A stretch of 30,023 nt of DNA from a virus. Taxonomy: Duplodnaviria; Heunggongvirae; Uroviricota; Caudoviricetes. The position numbers and the translations under genes are program-made. The notes beneath the pieces were generated by a model, which saw nothing but the letters and a program-made list of their open reading frames with translations, was not told where the DNA came from and did not search any database. Shown here in pieces: positions 1,659-15,420 of the stretch; the first letter of the stretch is position 1, and every line of letters begins with the position of its first letter. The stretch is from IMG/VR virus record IMGVR_UViG_2778261270_000003; one strand, 5' to 3'.

Positions 1659-4145
1659 TTAAGAATCAGCCTGACTCGGGATCAGTTTTTGCCAGATAAC
1701 TGAAACGTATTTTGCCTGGTAACGGGCGTCATCAAGTGCATTATGGCGCTCACCTTCGAATGGAATAGCCGTTCTGGCATCGAAGTCTATGGCTTTCCCC
1801 AGCTCAACGATTGTGCGTACATCGCGATCGTTGTAGTAACGCCACGGGCAGGGGATCCCCTGCCGTTCGTATGAACGGCGCAAAATCGTGTTGTCGAAGT
1901 TGGCTCCATTTCCCCAAACCTGAACAAAAAATTCACCGGAGTTTTCGTCGATAAATTCTCGCAATTGTAACAGTGCATCATCTAACGGGATTTCATCGGT
2001 CATAATGGCAGATTGCGCTTCGCGTGATTGCTTAAGCCACCATTTAATGGTGTCCCGATCAATGACTCCGCCAGCAGTTTCCAGATCGATAGTCTTACTA
2101 AATTCCGGTCCCATATCTCCGGTTTGCGGATCGAAAAATATTGCACCTATTGAGATGATCGGGGCATCAGGATTTTTTCCCATGGTTTCAAGGTCGATCA
2201 TTAGATGGTCACACGTCCTGCTGGTGGATGTGATTTCGTGATGACCGTTCACCTTAATTGGGTGATCTGCCGTCTCGCCAGTTTCATTATCGCTATTGTG
2301 ATGCTGATTGCCGCCAGTGTTCTCCTTGTGTGGATGTTCAGCGCCTTCCATTTCCTCCGGATCATCTTCCTGAACTTCAACCTGATACTCTTCATCGAAT
2401 GTTTCTTGGTATGTTGCGTCGCCCATCACCGCGCCACAATCAGGGCAGTTGCCGCCGCCGGTCTGACCGCAGGCGGTGCAGACTTTTTCCACTTCCTGTT
2501 GCGCTACTGGTTCAGGCTGTTTCGTTTCTGGCTCGTTTTGTAACGCATTTGGACTGTTTTGTTCCGCTTTTTGGTAGTTCCGTTCCGATTCATGCTGGTT
2601 CTGGTTCACAGAATCGCGGGTCTGGAGCCCCTTAACCCATTTCGGATCATTCGGGTCACTAATCCCTTCAACAAATTCACCACGTGATGCAGCAAGCAAC
2701 TTATCGGCGTCAGGCTGGCTGATATTGGCTGCCTGCATAATTTTGTTTACTTCGTCAGCGGTAACTTTTATCGGCTCTGGTTGTTCTGAATCTTCAGCGG
2801 TATCTACATTTTGCGGTAAGCCCGTGTATGTGCCATTTTTTCGGGCAAAATATTCTTCTTTTGTGATTTCAGTGGCGCCAGCAGCCAGTGCCTTATCCAG
2901 ACCAGAGAGTTTGTTTGCGCGACCGTATTTTTCTCCGTCCTTATCTGCGAAGAGGAAATAGAACGGCCCCTCACGCTCTACAGATGGTTCAGCTTCCGGC
3001 GCGGTTTCATTTTTTGGGATATCAGATACCTCAGTTTCCACTGCATCAGTTTGTGTTTCTGATGACTGGAGAACATCAACAGTGCCCAGGTCTGTTTCTT
3101 CATTCTCAAACACGCCCTTTGTCGTCAGGTATTCGCAGATATATTTGTTCAGTGCTACGGGATCTTTGTGAATGTCGATCGGACGCTCACGGACAAGGCC
3201 AAAAATAGTTTGGCGGTCGTAGCGAAGGGCATCAGGCTGTTTGCGCATTGATGCCGAGATACGCTTCCAGTCTTCGCGGTCGTTGTCGATAACTTCTTTT
3301 TTTGCCCAGCGATGGATGCTGCCGTCAATGTTTCCGGCATCCACATCACTAGGCCAGAGAGCGTAGGCCAGTTCGTCATCCAGTGTTTTCCATGTCTGCT
3401 TGTATTCGCGATGAATGGCAGCAATGACCGGGCTGATTTTTCCTGTTGAATTTTCAGTGTACTGTTGATTGGCTCTGGCGCGGGCGAGATCAACAACAGA
3501 CGTGTATTTTCCGGTTTCCTTGCGTTCACCTTCGCGACGTTTTTTCCAGATGCGCATCTCTGCCTGAATTTCGGGCCATTTAGCACCAGGAATACATTTA
3601 TGCTTAACCCACCCAATGGCGTGCAACTTAAGCTCCGGATACATGGCGTTAACTTCTGGCATTTTCATCAACGCTTCAACGATATGTCCGTCGAATGTTG
3701 CCATGTCTTCCTGCAACAATTCCTGTGCGCTAATAACCATATCAACGGTGATGTTTTCACATGTGTCGAACTTAACCATGACAGCGTTCTGTACTTCAGG
3801 GGCCAGCTTGTCAAAAGTGACGTTCATCGGATCGGATTCAGTCTCAACCGGGACAAAAGAAGCAGACTCCTCATCCCAGCGGTTTTCCTGCATATATTCA
3901 GCATCCCATGAATCGAGGGCAGGGCGGGGTATGCCAGGTTTATCCTCGCAGACAATAAATTTATAAGCGCAGTCCTGAGCAGCCGGATAATGTTCCAGGA
4001 ATTGCCAGTGAAATTTTGCTCGAGCACGGCGTTCGTCGCCAGCTTCAATGGCTGTGGCTACAGCCACAGCGCCTTCTTCCCTTGTTGCCAGTTCGTCAGG
4101 AATAGCGGCGCAAATAAAGACTTTACTCATTTGTTTTAACCTCAT
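1659..4145 (-). CDS. Large prophage exonuclease with C-terminal DnaQ-like DEDDh 3'-5' exonuclease domain; central zinc ribbon and acidic linker
   Basis: 828-aa ORF. C-terminal Exo I (MIDLETMG), Exo II (NGANFDNTIL) and Exo III (HNALDDARYQAKY) motifs. Zinc-ribbon-like CTACGQTGGGNCPDCG and long acidic low-complexity segments. Probable start at ATG 4130 (MSKVF..., GAGG 9 nt upstream) rather than 4145. Confidence 0.8.
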   Translation of the reverse strand: MRLKQMSKVFICAAIPDELATREEGAVAVATAIEAGDERRARAKFHWQFLEHYPAAQDCAYKFIVCEDKPGIPRPALDSWDAEYMQENRWDEESASFVPVETESDPMNVTFDKLAPEVQNAVMVKFDTCENITVDMVISAQELLQEDMATFDGHIVEALMKMPEVNAMYPELKLHAIGWVKHKCIPGAKWPEIQAEMRIWKKRREGERKETGKYTSVVDLARARANQQYTENSTGKISPVIAAIHREYKQTWKTLDDELAYALWPSDVDAGNIDGSIHRWAKKEVIDNDREDWKRISASMRKQPDALRYDRQTIFGLVRERPIDIHKDPVALNKYICEYLTTKGVFENEETDLGTVDVLQSSETQTDAVETEVSDIPKNETAPEAEPSVEREGPFYFLFADKDGEKYGRANKLSGLDKALAAGATEITKEEYFARKNGTYTGLPQNVDTAEDSEQPEPIKVTADEVNKIMQAANISQPDADKLLAASRGEFVEGISDPNDPKWVKGLQTRDSVNQNQHESERNYQKAEQNSPNALQNEPETKQPEPVAQQEVEKVCTACGQTGGGNCPDCGAVMGDATYQETFDEEYQVEVQEDDPEEMEGAEHPHKENTGGNQHHNSDNETGETADHPIKVNGHHEITSTSRTCDHLMIDLETMGKNPDAPIISIGAIFFDPQTGDMGPEFSKTIDLETAGGVIDRDTIKWWLKQSREAQSAIMTDEIPLDDALLQLREFIDENSGEFFVQVWGNGANFDNTILRRSYERQGIPCPWRYYNDRDVRTIVELGKAIDFDARTAIPFEGERHNALDDARYQAKYVSVIWQKLIPSQADS

Positions 4146-4623
4146 CTATAACAACCGGTTCGCTACGTCGCCTCGTACTACTGATAATGCTCATCTTGAT
4201 GTGCACCATTCTGAAGAGGAACTGGGTTATATCTTCAGCCTACAGGCGAAGCGCGTTCTGTCTAAAAATCTCACTTTCCAGTACAAAAGCAGTGCGTTTC
4301 AGGTACGCAGTGAGGGCCGGGGATATCGACTTAGGCATTCGGTTGTTACTGTATGCGAGAACTTTGACGGTGAAATTAACGTTCTGTATGACGGGAAAGC
4401 GCTGGGCTGGGAAAAGTATGTTGATGGCCCGGAGCCTATACCACTGGATGATGAAAAGAGTGTCCATGAACGAGTGGATAATGCCCGTATTGATTTACGC
4501 TCAAAATACTATGTTAAACCTAAAGCTGACCATCCCTGGCTTACGCGCCGAACGCAAAGTCATCAGCAAGTTAAGCCCCCGAAGTTACCTAAAAAGAAGC
4601 CTGATCCCGATAAAAAAGATTGA
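4048..4623 (+). other. Orphan ORF / possible gene remnant at the exo-flxA junction (identity unknown)
   Basis: 191-aa ORF whose ATG lies antisense inside the exonuclease 5' end; no internal Met; Lys/Pro-rich tail (KPPKLPKKKPDPDKKD). Sits where the immunity region would be expected. I could not place it in a family from the sequence. Confidence 0.25.
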
Positions 4624-9729: not shown

Positions 9730-9942
9730 TCATGAAAGGTAAACATTGGCAGCTGAAGGGCCACGCAGACCATTTATCCGGCAAAATTCCACGCGTAATC
9801 CGGTGGTAATTTCTTCTGCATCGCGGAGATTGAGCGCTGAAACATGAAGCTGGACATCGATACGACCATCGGATGGGGTGATAAGACCCTTGCCGCTTTT
9901 GCCGTCAAAGGTTTTGACAATTCCTGTCATTTTACGGGACAA
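9730..9942 (-). CDS. cspF: Cold-shock-domain protein (CspF/CspH-type, non-canonical RNP motifs)
   Basis: 70-aa product [26 protein letters not shown]...; cold-shock-domain fold, divergent from the adjacent cspB as in Qin. Confidence 0.9.
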
Positions 9943-10242
9943 AAAAATTCCTTAATACTGATAACTTGGCGCACTATACACACGTTCCTGAAGAAAGCTA
10001 TAGTTTTTTGATGGGGTTGAAGATGGCTGGATGTCTAAAATAAACATTGCTTCATATGTTCAACTATGCGTTAATGATTGCGTCGGTTTGAAGAACAGAC
10101 GATATACGAAGTAGTTTACTAAAGCAGTTCTCATTTCAGGTGTTATTCACTTATTCCTTCTTTGAGTCTCTCCAATTAAGTACGAAGTCGTTTCTGTTAT
10201 GCAAACCATTTATGCCGAAAGGCTCAAGTTAAGGAATGTAGA

Positions 10243-10458
10243 ATGTCAAATAAAATGACTGGTTTAGTAAAATGGTTTAACGCTGATAAAGGTTTCGGCT
10301 TTATTTCTCCTGTTGATGGTAGTAAAGATGTGTTTGTGCATTTTTCTGCGATTCAGAATGATAATTATCGAACCTTATTTGAAGGTCAAAAGGTTACCTT
10401 CTCTATAGAGAGTGGTGCTAAAGGTCCTGCAGCAGCAAATGTCATCATTACTGATTAA
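10243..10458 (+). CDS. cspB: Cold-shock protein CspB
   Basis: 71-aa product [37 protein letters not shown]... with RNP1/RNP2 motifs; long AT-rich 5' leader. Confidence 0.9.
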
Positions 10459-10739
10459 AATTCATCGCTCGTCTGTATACGATAACGAAGAAGGCTGATG
10501 CCTGAGTAGAGATACGGACAGAGTAGTGAATATTGGATCTCTTTAATAAAAAGTAAGGAGGTCCAATACATGAAACAATGGCTAGCATATTTGGCAAAAT
10601 CTTAATCAGGAAAAGTATGCTAACCATTGTGGTGAAGTGCAGGTTTGCTGCATGAATAGTTTTACAGCAGAAGCTAACTGCTGGCATGGCAAAACAAAGT
10701 GCGTAAGTGGATGACTCCCACAAAAAGCACCACAATCTC

Positions 10740-10763
10740 AAACCCGCTCAGGCGGGTTTTTTA
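10740..10763 (+). terminator. Rho-independent terminator downstream of cspB
   Basis: AAACCCGC-TCAG-GCGGGTTTTTT. Confidence 0.65.
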
Positions 10764-10821
10764 TTATCTGCTTTAAATATATTATTAAAATATAAAAAAT
10801 ACTTGTTACTAATAAAATCAA

Positions 10822-10992
10822 TCAGGCTACAGCTTTAAGATTTGTCTGGAATACTTTGTTGCAATGAGGGCAGATCAAAAGGGCACCTTTTTGTACTCTT
10901 GAAAAACTGTGTTCTGACTCTTGGGTGCAGTTTGGGCAGGAACATTTAACGAGATAATTACGGCGTGATTTTGAGTTTTTACGTTCTGACAT
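10822..10992 (-). CDS. Small zinc-ribbon protein (Com-like, C-x-C-P-x-C ... C-P-x-C)
   Basis: Track ORF 10822-11043; probable start at ATG 10992 with AGGAAAAG RBS, giving 56 aa MSERKNSKSRRNYLVKCSCPNCTQESEHSFSRVQKGALLICPHCNKVFQTNLKAVA. Four Cys in two knuckles and a basic N-terminus. Confidence 0.4.
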   Translation of the reverse strand: MSERKNSKSRRNYLVKCSCPNCTQESEHSFSRVQKGALLICPHCNKVFQTNLKAVA

Positions 10993-11211
10993 AGGCTTTT
11001 CCTGTATAAATGGCCGTATACAGTACACTAAATATGAAAACATTTCTCGTATTATTATTTTATATATGACTTTCTTTCAAAATAATTACCCACATTTTTA
11101 ATGTGTATGTTTTTTTAGCGCCGTTGAGAACAACGTGTGCTGTCAAAACTACCCCGTAGACTCCGATCTTTTCAAACATATTGCACCATCCGTGTACATC
11201 GGGGTGAGGAT

Positions 11212-11427
11212 ATGAAATCAATGGATAAGTTAACAACAGGTGTTGCCTATGGCACATCGGCGGGTAATGCTGGTTTCTGGGCATTGCAGTTACTCGATAA
11301 AGTAACTCCGTCACAGTGGGCTGCAATCGGTGTGCTGGGTAGCCTGGTTTTTGGCCTGCTGACGTATCTGACAAATCTTTATTTCAAGATTAAAGAAGAC
11401 AGGCGTAAGGCTGCGAGAGGAGAGTAA
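11212..11427 (+). CDS. essQ: Class II holin (phage 21 S-type pinholin) with MKSM dual-start motif
   Basis: 71-aa product [71 protein letters not shown]; two transmembrane domains and charged C-terminus; starts at Met1 and Met4. Confidence 0.9.
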
Positions 11428-11431
11428 TCCA

Positions 11432-11739
11432 ATGACTCAAGACTATGAACTGGTTGTGAAAGGAGTCCGTAATTTTGAGAATAAAGTTACGGTAACTGTA
11501 GCCTTACAGGACAAAGAACGCTTTGACGGTGAAATTTTTGACCTGGATGTCGCCATGGACCGTGTTGAAGGAGCTGCGCTGGAGTTTTATGAGGCAGCAG
11601 CCAGAAGGAGCGTCCGGCAAGTCTTCCTGGAAGTAGCAGAAAAATTGTCAGAAAAAGTTGAGTCTTATCTGCAGCATCAGTACTCCTTTAAGATTGAAAA
11701 TCCTGCCAATAAGCACGAGCGTCCTCATCATAAATATCT

Positions 11740-11743
<4 letters not shown>
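11432..11743 (+). CDS. ydfR: YdfR-like small protein of the lysis cassette
   Basis: 103-aa ORF between holin and endolysin, overlapping the endolysin start by ATGA; same size and position as Qin YdfR. Confidence 0.75.
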
Positions 11744-12767
<1,024 letters not shown>

Positions 12768-13129
12768 GGTAATATTAAATCGGAACATTTACATCGCGGA
12801 ATGTAAAATTTAAATAAAAAGGACTCTTCCATGAGCCAAAATTCCTGAAATCTTAAGGGTAAGATAAAAGGTCTTAATCAGAATGACACGTTTTATTAAT
12901 AAATAAAGCTATTCTTTCATTGCTGTGTTTTTCTTTACAAAAGTAATCCTTGCTATGGGTGGTTAATCATGCGTTAATGGTGTTCTGGTTTGTTACAAAT
13001 TTATCTGAAGCAGTCATTGTTATAATTTTATTATTTGTACCTCTTGAGATTTCCTTGTTGGTTTTTCTCTCTGATATTTTTTTTCGGACCATTCTGCCCA
13101 AGGGCTAATTTCTTCAAAAGGTAATAATT

Positions 13130-13342
13130 ATGTCTAACAAAATGACTGGCTTAGTGAAATGGTTTAACCCTGAAAAAGGTTTTGGTTTCATCACGCCGAA
13201 AGATGGCAGCAAAGATGTGTTTGTCCATTTCTCAGCAATTCAGAGCAACGATTTCAAAACATTAACTGAGAATCAGGAAGTTGAATTTGGTATTGAGAAC
13301 GGACCTAAAGGTCCTGCCGCTGTTCATGTAGTGGCGCTTTGA
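13130..13342 (+). CDS. cspI: Cold-shock protein CspI
   Basis: 70-aa product [42 protein letters not shown]...; long AT-rich leader upstream. Confidence 0.9.
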
Positions 13343-13370
13343 GGTAGACAATATTACAAACCATATTCAC

Positions 13371-13541
13371 TTTAGATGCCCGTGTTGTCATGGTTCCCAG
13401 TATAGAACATCATCTTTTGATGTTTCTGACATGAATCCTTTCGGGGCAAAATGTATCTTTTGTAAATCAATGATGATTACATTTGATAATATTTCACAAT
13501 ACTTAAATGCCAGCCGTCTGTCGTTGGATTTAAAAAAGTGA
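13371..13541 (+). CDS. Small Cys-rich (CPCC...CIFC) zinc-ribbon-like ORF; start uncertain
   Basis: Open frame ...FRCPCCHGSQYRTSSFDVSDMNPFGAKCIFCKSMMITFDNISQYLNASRLSLDLKK* ending at 13539-13541. Only in-frame ATG is 13431, after the first Cys knuckle; may use a non-ATG start or be a remnant. Confidence 0.3.
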   Translation, partial: FRCPCCHGSQYRTSSFDVSDMNPFGAKCIFCKSMMITFDNISQYLNASRLSLDLKK

Positions 13542-15214: not shown

Positions 15215-15420
15215 TCCTTTCCGGTGATCCGACAGGTTACGGGGCGGCGACCTCGCGGGTTTTCGCTATTTATGAAAATTTTCCGGTTTAAGGCGTTTCC
15301 GTTCTTCTTCGTCGTAACTTAATGTTTTTATTTAAAATACCCCCTGAAAAGAAAGGAAACGACAGGTGCTGAAAACGGGCTTTTTGGCCTCTGTCGTTTC
15401 CTTTCTCTGTTTTTGGCCGT
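15215..15420 (+). other. cos site (cosQ-cosN-cosB); 12-nt cohesive end GGGCGGCGACCT at 15242-15253
   Basis: ...CGGGTCCTTTCCGGTGATCCGACAGGTTACG | GGGCGGCGACCTCGCGGGTTTTCGCTATTTATG... reproduces the phage lambda right-end/left-end junction as I recall it, followed by the Nu1-binding cosB region and Nu1. Confidence 0.9.

Follow-up and report, generated by a model that had tools for sequence, protein, structure and literature searches.

The small open reading frame (ORF) that faces the lysis genes in the 30,023-nt stretch of viral DNA analysed here (the window) is, with virtual certainty, ynfU (b4776 in E. coli K-12), an already known gene with its own Pfam and NCBIfam families. It is very probably a cargo gene, not a gene specific to lysis. 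The fuller reading, which we favor on balance, is that ynfU is a known Cys4 zinc-ribbon gene carried as passenger cargo by the prophage Qin, and that its product is neither a homologue of Com or Ogr nor a dedicated component of the lysis system. Databases and the literature already covered the gene and its family, as well as the zinc-knuckle motif and the translation of the product; the only new lead is the persistent adjacency of ynfU to csp genes across Enterobacterales, inside as well as outside prophages. A useful negative result comes with it: YnfU should not be called Com/Ogr-like or a lysis regulator.

The ynfU gene, its start and its flanking signals

The maximal ORF given by the ORF list and the sequence spans 10822..11043 on the minus strand (73 aa). 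Read from the internal ATG at 10992 (minus strand), it yields a 56-aa product, MSERKNSKSRRNYLVKCSCPNCTQESEHSFSRVQKGALLICPHCNKVFQTNLKAVA (56 codons, stop at 10822). A Shine-Dalgarno sequence, AGGAAAAG (10996..11003, minus strand), precedes this start with a 3-nt spacer, and CAGGA(A/G) is kept at the corresponding position across genera. The N-terminus of the product is basic, and its cysteines lie at C17, C19 and C22 (KCSCPNC) and at C41 and C44 (CPHC). The first-pass annotation had described the 56-aa ORF, its ribosome-binding site, the basic N-terminus and the two Cys knuckles, all of which are borne out by the sequence. The longer, 73-aa start at ATG 11043 was rejected: the 17-codon extension that it adds is not conserved among homologues, which supports the 56-aa start, and PGAP uses the same 56-aa start for ynfU. 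The coding sequence (CDS; 10822..10992, minus strand, 56 aa plus stop) is defined by the ORF list, the identity with K-12, the matches to PF23499 and NF038384, a dN/dS of 0.105 and an AF2 model.

Segment 10600-11450 of the window is 100% identical to K-12 MG1655 and to many other strains (megablast, complete E. coli genomes). The feature annotated under the ORF is 'ynfU: putative zinc-binding protein YnfU' (WP_211180497.1), which is 100% identical to K-12 ynfU. The order of genes at this locus in MG1655 is ydfU, ydfT(quuQ), [ynfS], cspF(−), cspB(+), ynfU(−), essD/essQ(+), ydfR, rrrQ, rzpQ, cspI, ynfQ, ynfR, ynfN, gnsB, which places ynfU in Qin, a cryptic prophage in K-12. The Pfam search that had been suggested for this ORF returned PF23499 ('YnfU') at 107.3 bits (cutoff 27), with query residues 1-49 aligned on profile positions 1-49, and the NCBIfam model NF038384 scored 79.4 bits (cutoff 36). 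With an identical sequence, the same Qin locus between cspB and essQ and a full-length match above curated cutoffs, the window ORF differs in nothing from the E. coli K-12 gene of the YnfU family and is its type member. The first-pass label 'unannotated' does not hold, since RefSeq/PGAP carries ynfU, with PF23499 and NF038384, and the gene has been in print from 2019 onward; only some phage records miss the CDS, 2H10 and Tritos being among the several that do.

Weaver et al. (bioRxiv 10.1101/511675) found YnfU by profiling ribosomes stalled at initiation, confirmed it with a chromosomal SPA tag, and pointed out both its two CPXC zinc knuckles and its moderate similarity to PA0128, a PhnA-like protein. 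In uninduced MG1655 grown at 37 °C, in exponential and stationary phase, YnfU-SPA reached the highest level of all the small proteins newly identified in that study (bioRxiv 10.1101/511675). PIRT-Seq independently scored ynfU as coding. YnfU is one of the best-expressed small proteins of unknown function in E. coli K-12, and the literature searched gives no functional assignment for it.

The last ~60 nt before ynfU are conserved, and beyond about position −75 the sequences are unrelated between genera. The alignment of 63 distinct leaders brings out a promoter-like element (11020..11048, minus strand) that reads GAGAAA (11048-11043), a 17-nt spacer and GTG-TACTGT (11028-11020) in the window. 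The family consensus is rrGCwA-N17-GTG-TAnnGT, with the box ~33 nt before the ATG. Within the hexamer, all 63 leaders share the T, the A and the final T, 62 of the 63 keep the fifth-position G, and the two middle positions are free. RNAalifold, applied to the 63 leaders from −45 to +6, gave no conserved structure. Judged from these alignments, the GTG-TAnnGT box shows the variation expected of a −10 hexamer, not that of an RNA helix, and is a candidate promoter. A consensus scan also picked out a Qin-specific sigma-70-like site, TTGAAA-18-AATAAT (11051..11080, minus strand; 10 of 12 matches). Its case as the ynfU promoter is weak: it is not conserved outside Escherichia, the three sigma-70-like sites found in the region compare with 3.3 expected from shuffles, and in such an AT-rich region it is no more than chance would give. 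An RNA thermometer formed by a Shine-Dalgarno-occluding hairpin (CTGTATA/TATACAG in Qin) was considered and rejected, since single-sequence folds differ between genera and RNAalifold found no consensus on the 63 leaders. A cspA-type thermoregulator upstream of ynfU was likewise discarded, the only ones detected by Rfam being those of cspB and cspI.

On the 3' side of ynfU lie only a hairpin and the convergent cspB gene. The hairpin, AAACCCGC-TCAG-GCGGGTTT (10740..10759), was picked out by a terminator scan and from the minus-strand sequence; it is GC-rich and lies ~60 nt beyond the ynfU stop. It makes a good intrinsic terminator on the plus strand, i.e. on the cspB side, and a weak one on the minus strand, where it is followed by a 3-U tract only. 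As read from the sequence, it may serve to end both of the convergent transcripts, that of cspB and that of ynfU.

Conservation of YnfU and its relation to other zinc proteins

The first-pass annotation had noted that its proposal would fall if there were neither homologues nor a conserved Cys pattern; both were found. A word-indexed search returned 49 ynfU relatives, a scan of one genome per species gave 74 ynfU loci, and an exhaustive HMM search among 1.84 billion representatives gave 46 clusters, all from Enterobacterales. A second-round search extended the family to Hafnia, Yersinia, Erwinia, Brenneria, Serratia, Providencia, Cronobacter and Mangrovibacter, the members of which were already labelled as YnfU family. 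Relatives beyond Enterobacterales were sought and dismissed: among the 46 clusters, the small proteins all belong to the YnfU family, and the few long multi-stretch matches are unrelated, repetitive Cys-rich proteins. The family is narrow.

An intact ORF with both CPxC knuckles is present in 72 of the 74 species-level loci. In 20 intact members of the core subfamily, the invariant residues are C19, P20, C22, C41, P42 and C44 together with S26, E27, H28, S29, F30, R32, Q34, K35 and G36. In the same members C17 is only nearly invariant, which designates CPxC...CPxC as the ligands of YnfU, with the spacing CPxC-x18-CPxC. The median pairwise dN/dS is 0.105 (886 pairs), and the variability at codon positions 1, 2 and 3 is 0.18, 0.08 and 0.40, respectively. 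The protein is under strong purifying selection, and ynfU is a real coding gene.

The first-pass description of the product as a Com-like zinc ribbon stands for the Cys4 zinc ribbon and fails for the likeness to Com and Ogr. The Mu Com and P2 Ogr sequences, taken from annotated phage records, were each compared with the YnfU profile by hhalign; the probability was 3.2% for Com (10 aligned columns) and 2.0% for Ogr (8 aligned columns), and in both cases the alignment was restricted to a single CxxC knuckle. The Com and Ogr families were also absent from the best 25 of the 30 Pfam matches at E ≤ 10. On the strength of the hhalign probabilities we rejected homology of YnfU with either protein. 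Mu Com, the translational activator of mom, resembles YnfU in being a small (62 aa) Cys4 zinc-finger protein from a temperate phage; however, com (35768-35956) lies upstream of its target mom (35877-36602) on the same strand and overlaps it, whereas ynfU has no target gene downstream. Similarly, the late-gene activators P2 Ogr and P4 Delta are small (72 aa) Cys4 zinc-binding phage proteins, but their motif is CxxC-x22-CxxxxC instead of CPxC-x18-CPxC, and the homologues of YnfU are mostly found outside phages. That they are small Cys4 proteins is all that YnfU, Com and Ogr have in common.

Other zinc ribbons come closer. The second-best Pfam match of YnfU is the N-terminal zinc ribbon of PhnA/YjdM (PF08274; E = 1.3e-4, 22.4 bits for a cutoff of 30.8; E = 0.13 in the PDB profile search), represented by P. 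aeruginosa PA0128 (PDB code: 2akl). It is the same kind of two-knuckle ribbon, except that in YnfU the ribbon stands alone, without the C-terminal domain of PhnA. Among solved structures, the best sequence match is Tim15 with its DNL-type zinc ribbon (E = 0.0027), and L44e, a zinc ribbon of the ribosome, ranks next. The Tim15 alignment covers the ribbon only and includes both knuckles, S-H-S and KG..LI.CPHC. The Pfam zf-DNL family (PF05180; Tim15/Zim17/Hep1) scores 13.5 bits, below the cutoff of 27 (E = 0.074), so that YnfU is not assigned to it. Matches in PHROGs are weak and of a generic zinc-ribbon kind (best E = 0.0023), and PADLOC, which covers anti-phage defence, returned 0 matches.

The AF2 model of YnfU has a moderate mean pLDDT (73.8) and consists of four short strands and one short helix. 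A Foldseek search of the PDB with this model retrieved only generic zinc ribbons, none at E ≤ 0.001. The best structural analogues are small archaeal zinc-finger miniproteins, namely HVO_2753 and the ribosome-bound zinc-finger proteins of Methanosarcina and Saccharolobus (TM ~0.45-0.5, rmsd 2.1-2.8 Å over 35-39 residues). They are similar to YnfU in size and in being stand-alone proteins; they belong to another domain of life and share no detectable sequence homology with it, so that the predicted likeness would be one of fold class only.

A different kind of relationship links YnfU with the YmcF/YnfQ-like proteins (PF23641), which are ~60 aa long and contain two CxxC pairs, and whose genes occupy the same csp-rich regions, frequently adjacent to ynfU. 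The two families are nonetheless separate: ynfU matches no YmcF-like model and YnfQ matches no YnfU model. Genes of the YmcF/YnfQ type lie 3' of cspI and, in Cronobacter, of a cold-shock domain (CSD) gene. The arrangement differs as well, ynfQ being co-oriented with, and directly 3' of, a csp gene, whereas ynfU forms a separate transcription unit.

Gene neighbourhoods of ynfU

In the window, ynfU adjoins essQ/essD (11212..11427, plus strand), the first gene of the lysis cassette, which is annotated as such and encodes a 71-aa holin. The genes are divergent, with a spacer of 219 bp. The holin matches PF04971 (Phage_holin_2_1, 'Bacteriophage P21 holin S') at 116.7 bits. Both the position of ynfU on the opposite strand just upstream of the holin and the phage-21 type of the lysis cassette, as given by the first-pass annotation, are thus confirmed. 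The holin gene is context, lying outside the ynfU unit.

Conservation of ynfU at phage-21-type cassettes, proposed earlier as a check, was found in part: phages 2H10 and PhiR42_1 reproduce the Qin gene order, but most homologues lie elsewhere. In the Klebsiella phage ST13-OXA48phi12.4, a 59%-identical homologue is divergent from an unrelated 103-aa holin, with no csp genes nearby, and in phage PHB10 the homologue sits beside a csp pair near the integrase gene and umuDC, with no annotated holin adjacent. Among the sampled phages and prophages that have a lysis cassette nearby, ynfU adjoins the holin every time. Over the 74 species loci, a holin of either reference type occurs within 1.5 kb in 7 and an endolysin within 3 kb in 10. 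Within E. coli, 1,649 genomes contain ynfU, at 1,657 places in total, and 4,842 genomes contain the P21-type holin, at 15,333 places, about 89% of the holin copies being without ynfU in the genome. A 306-nt stretch 3' of cspB was considered as a possible repeat element and rejected, as it is found at the same 1,657 places as ynfU.

The majority of homologues lie on chromosomes, away from any lysis genes. In Enterobacter, ynfU stands in the order GST, tautomerase, ynfU, HTH_20; on the Klebsiella chromosome, it is followed by a CSD gene; in Lelliottia, YnaE, ynfU and a convergent CSD gene lie between liv transporter genes and pgsA/uvrC. Further settings outside prophages are those of Franconibacter, Hafnia, Yersinia (after dsbB), Cronobacter and a second Citrobacter lineage, and in a single case, from Kosakonia, the homologue is convergent with an HSP20 gene. 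The gap between Q and the holin gene is a classic site of cargo insertion in lambdoid phages, as exemplified by stx. The position of ynfU beside the holin is best explained by its lying in this standard cargo site, between Q and the lysis genes, and no functional link is needed.

The neighbours that recur are cold-shock genes. In the window, ynfU is convergent with cspB (10243..10458, plus strand), and cspF (9730..9942, minus strand) is the third gene of the cassette, both by annotation. The Rfam cspA thermoregulator is detected on cspB (10082-10474; 158.8 bits for a threshold of 78) and on cspI. Across species, 49 of the 74 loci, which are phylogenetically non-independent, have a CSD gene no more than 1.5 kb from ynfU, for an estimated chance expectation of ~0.5 loci under the assumption of ~9-10 csp genes per 5-Mb genome. 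At least nine arrangements occur: the CSD gene may be convergent or co-oriented downstream, divergent or co-oriented upstream, and single or paired; the cspF-cspB type ('dn- dn+') accounts for 20 of the 74 loci. This variety argues against the inheritance of one single block. A full-length Rfam cspA thermoregulator that exceeds the gathering score is present on the adjacent CSD gene in 13 of the 14 loci sampled. The whole ynfU/csp/csp cassette is also found on a chromosome outside any prophage, between SDR and budABC genes and with phage genes absent, which indicates that Qin carries the cassette as cargo.

A YnfQ/YmcF-like gene is found near ynfU in 23 loci, including five from Atlantibacter that have no CSD gene. 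YnfQ, encoded after cspI in Qin, is another small zinc ribbon (YmcF-like in Pfam). Among the Qin neighbours of ynfU, ynfR is strongly induced by cold, and ynfQ has been listed among cold-shock-induced genes. Neither a CSD gene nor a YnfQ gene is nearby in 20 of the 74 loci. As for the distant lineages, a CSD gene lies 0.8 kb away in Hafnia and a CSD-YmcF pair 1.9 kb away in Cronobacter, and there is no CSD or YnfQ gene near ynfU in Yersinia and in the second Citrobacter lineage. The link with CSD genes is strong in the core subfamily and incomplete overall.

Rival readings and a tentative role for YnfU

If YnfU were a Com- or Ogr-like zinc-finger regulator of the holin, of lysis timing or of late genes, as the first-pass annotation had proposed, its divergent placement 219 bp from the holin gene would make sense, as would the combination of a basic tail with a zinc ribbon, which is seen in small nucleic-acid-binding regulators. 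So would the holin adjacency in the sampled phages that have a lysis cassette, which includes ST13-OXA48phi12.4 despite its unrelated holin and lack of csp genes. We regard this proposal as very unlikely. The profile comparisons (3% for Mu Com, 2% for P2 Ogr) and the Cys spacing, which differs from that of Ogr, argue against it, and there is no mom-like gene downstream of ynfU. Most homologues are on chromosomes without lysis genes, the PHB10 copy is away from any annotated holin, a holin is near in only 7 of 74 loci, and the great majority of P21-type holin copies in E. coli (15,333 places, against 1,657 for ynfU) do without the gene. Moreover, YnfU is highly expressed in uninduced K-12, and the usual lambdoid cargo site between Q and the holin accounts for its position. 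The same position could be exploited in cis: the transcription of ynfU, as a roadblock or through antisense interference, would curb read-through into the holin gene in the lysogenic state, with the protein playing a secondary role. The gene does run head-on into Q-dependent late transcription, is flanked by the 10740-10759 hairpin and the holin, and shows active expression in the lysogen. However, selection acts on the protein (dN/dS of 0.105, invariant Zn ligands and loop), and ynfU is kept in many non-phage contexts where there is nothing to interfere with. We therefore hold a cis role to be highly improbable; interference in Qin would at best be an incidental side effect.

A partnership with Hsp70, in which YnfU would act as an escort-like or chaperone-partner zinc ribbon analogous to the DNL finger of Tim15/Zim17/Hep1, appears just as improbable as a role in cis. 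Tim15 is indeed the best sequence match among solved structures, zf-DNL shows up at E = 0.074 and an HSP20 gene converges on the homologue in Kosakonia. Yet the zf-DNL score is half the cutoff, Tim15 is absent from the Foldseek matches in the PDB, and the HSP20 neighbour is a single case. YnfU ends right after the second knuckle and is without the region where the D-N-L motif of the DNL family would be expected. The least probable of the readings is that YnfU works in zinc homeostasis, as a small Zn buffer or a Zur-regulated factor. The database name 'zinc-binding protein' could be taken to hint at such a role, its four conserved Cys ligands would suit it, and a perfect GAAATGTT half-site lies upstream of ynfU in Qin. 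A Zur box at this place was nevertheless rejected: the best match, 15 of 23 positions, was reached by 231 of 2,000 shuffles, and the sequence is not conserved in other genera. In addition, a single Zn site in a 56-aa ribbon would be typical of fold stabilisation and not of storage, and the genes beside ynfU are of the csp type, znu, zinT and ykgM not being among them.

In the reading that we prefer, ynfU would be a 'moron'-type cargo of the lambdoid prophage Qin. It is the outer gene of a cspF-cspB-ynfU cassette that has the Q antiterminator gene on one side and the P21-type lysis cassette on the other, and it has a promoter-like element and a ribosome-binding site of its own. It faces against late transcription and is expressed in the uninduced lysogen. 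The properties by which lambdoid morons are recognized are found here: the unit is autonomous, with predicted promoter and terminator, lies between phage modules and is patchily present, and expression from a repressed or cryptic prophage is documented by the published YnfU-SPA data (bioRxiv 10.1101/511675).

At the protein level, YnfU would coordinate one Zn with CPxC...CPxC and would contact a macromolecular partner with two further elements, the conserved basic tail (RKxxKxRRNYLVK) and the invariant SEHSFxRVQKG loop. The likeliest partner would be RNA, the ribosome or some protein that works together with the Csp RNA chaperones in adaptation to temperature or stress. A cold-shock or RNA-linked role of this kind, to which the gene neighbourhood points, is a tentative suggestion. 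It is equally tentative that YnfU, perhaps with the unrelated YmcF/YnfQ ribbons, is an RNA- or ribosome-binding companion of cold-inducible CspA-family genes, within a mobile 'cold-shock islet' captured by lambdoid phages, an idea again drawn from gene neighbourhood. Given the holin adjacency seen in phages, YnfU may in addition have a phage-specific side role.

Sequences flanking ynfU

A promoter-like box of the form rrGCwA-N17-GTG-TAnnGT lies upstream of ynfU (window 11020–11048, minus strand) and is kept across genera, the same box being found in the ynfU homologue loci L018–L091 at about −60 to −20 relative to the ATG. The fifth position of its hexamer is near-invariant (G in 62 of the 63 distinct leaders aligned). 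This G and the conserved GTG upstream of it are unusual in a plain sigma-70 −10 element; they might mark the site of a shared regulator.

On the other side of ynfU, an unannotated plus-strand stretch of about 300 nt (window 10465–10770) separates the cspB stop codon from a strong hairpin (10740–10759), with a second terminator-like hairpin at 10637–10653. In E. coli, this stretch carries no annotated feature and occurs at 1,657 places, a count identical to that of ynfU. The csp–ynfU spacer is far shorter in other genera, at 75–240 nt. The sole Rfam match to the stretch, Trp_leader, is sub-threshold (21.7 bits versus 41). The stretch could correspond to a long cspB 3′UTR or else to the Qin late-promoter/tR′ region.

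RNA elements and small genes near csp and ynfU

Both cspB and cspI are associated with full-length Rfam matches to the cspA thermoregulator on the plus strand (window 10082–10474, 158.8 bits, and 12984–13369, 110.9 bits, respectively). Elsewhere, an STnc100 sRNA match is placed between the holin gene and the ynfU homologue of a Superficieibacter prophage (L045 4740–4869, minus strand; 68.4 bits versus 47), and a FourU RNA thermometer lies about 1.2 kb from ynfU in one Enterobacter locus (L071 3717–3781, minus strand; 66.9 bits versus 60).

Directly 3′ of cspI, ynfQ (window 13353–13541, plus strand) encodes a YmcF-like protein (Pfam PF23641, 109.9 bits), a second small CxxC...CxxC protein, unrelated to YnfU. 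A YnfQ-like ORF adjoins the ynfU homologue in 23 of the 74 species loci, non-prophage loci among them; in five Atlantibacter loci, it does so without a cold-shock-domain (CSD) gene. Cronobacter carries a pair of CSD and YmcF-like genes 1.9 kb from ynfU.

In one Kosakonia sp. locus, the gene convergent with the ynfU homologue is not csp but an HSP20 small heat-shock gene (L095 4314–4781, minus strand); it is a further temperature-stress neighbour of ynfU, albeit a single case. In Hafnia (L103–L105), a DUF2058 gene (3808–4347, plus strand) separates a distant ynfU homologue from a CSD gene, all three lying on one strand, and they could form a three-gene unit.

Taxonomic labels and the lysis cassette

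Four contigs with an enterobacterial ynfU (L020, L041, L051 and L053) bear non-enterobacterial names, namely Veillonella parvula (MAG), Vagococcus sp., Kocuria sabuli and a Bacillota MAG. One of them has the complete Qin-like gene order. These labels most likely reflect contamination or mis-binning of the assemblies.

Within the lysis cassette of the window, ydfR (11432–11743, plus strand; DUF1327, 179.9 bits) is an insertion flanked by the holin gene on one side and the endolysin gene on the other. Phage 2H10, with its Qin-like gene order, has a different, 183-aa ORF at this position.
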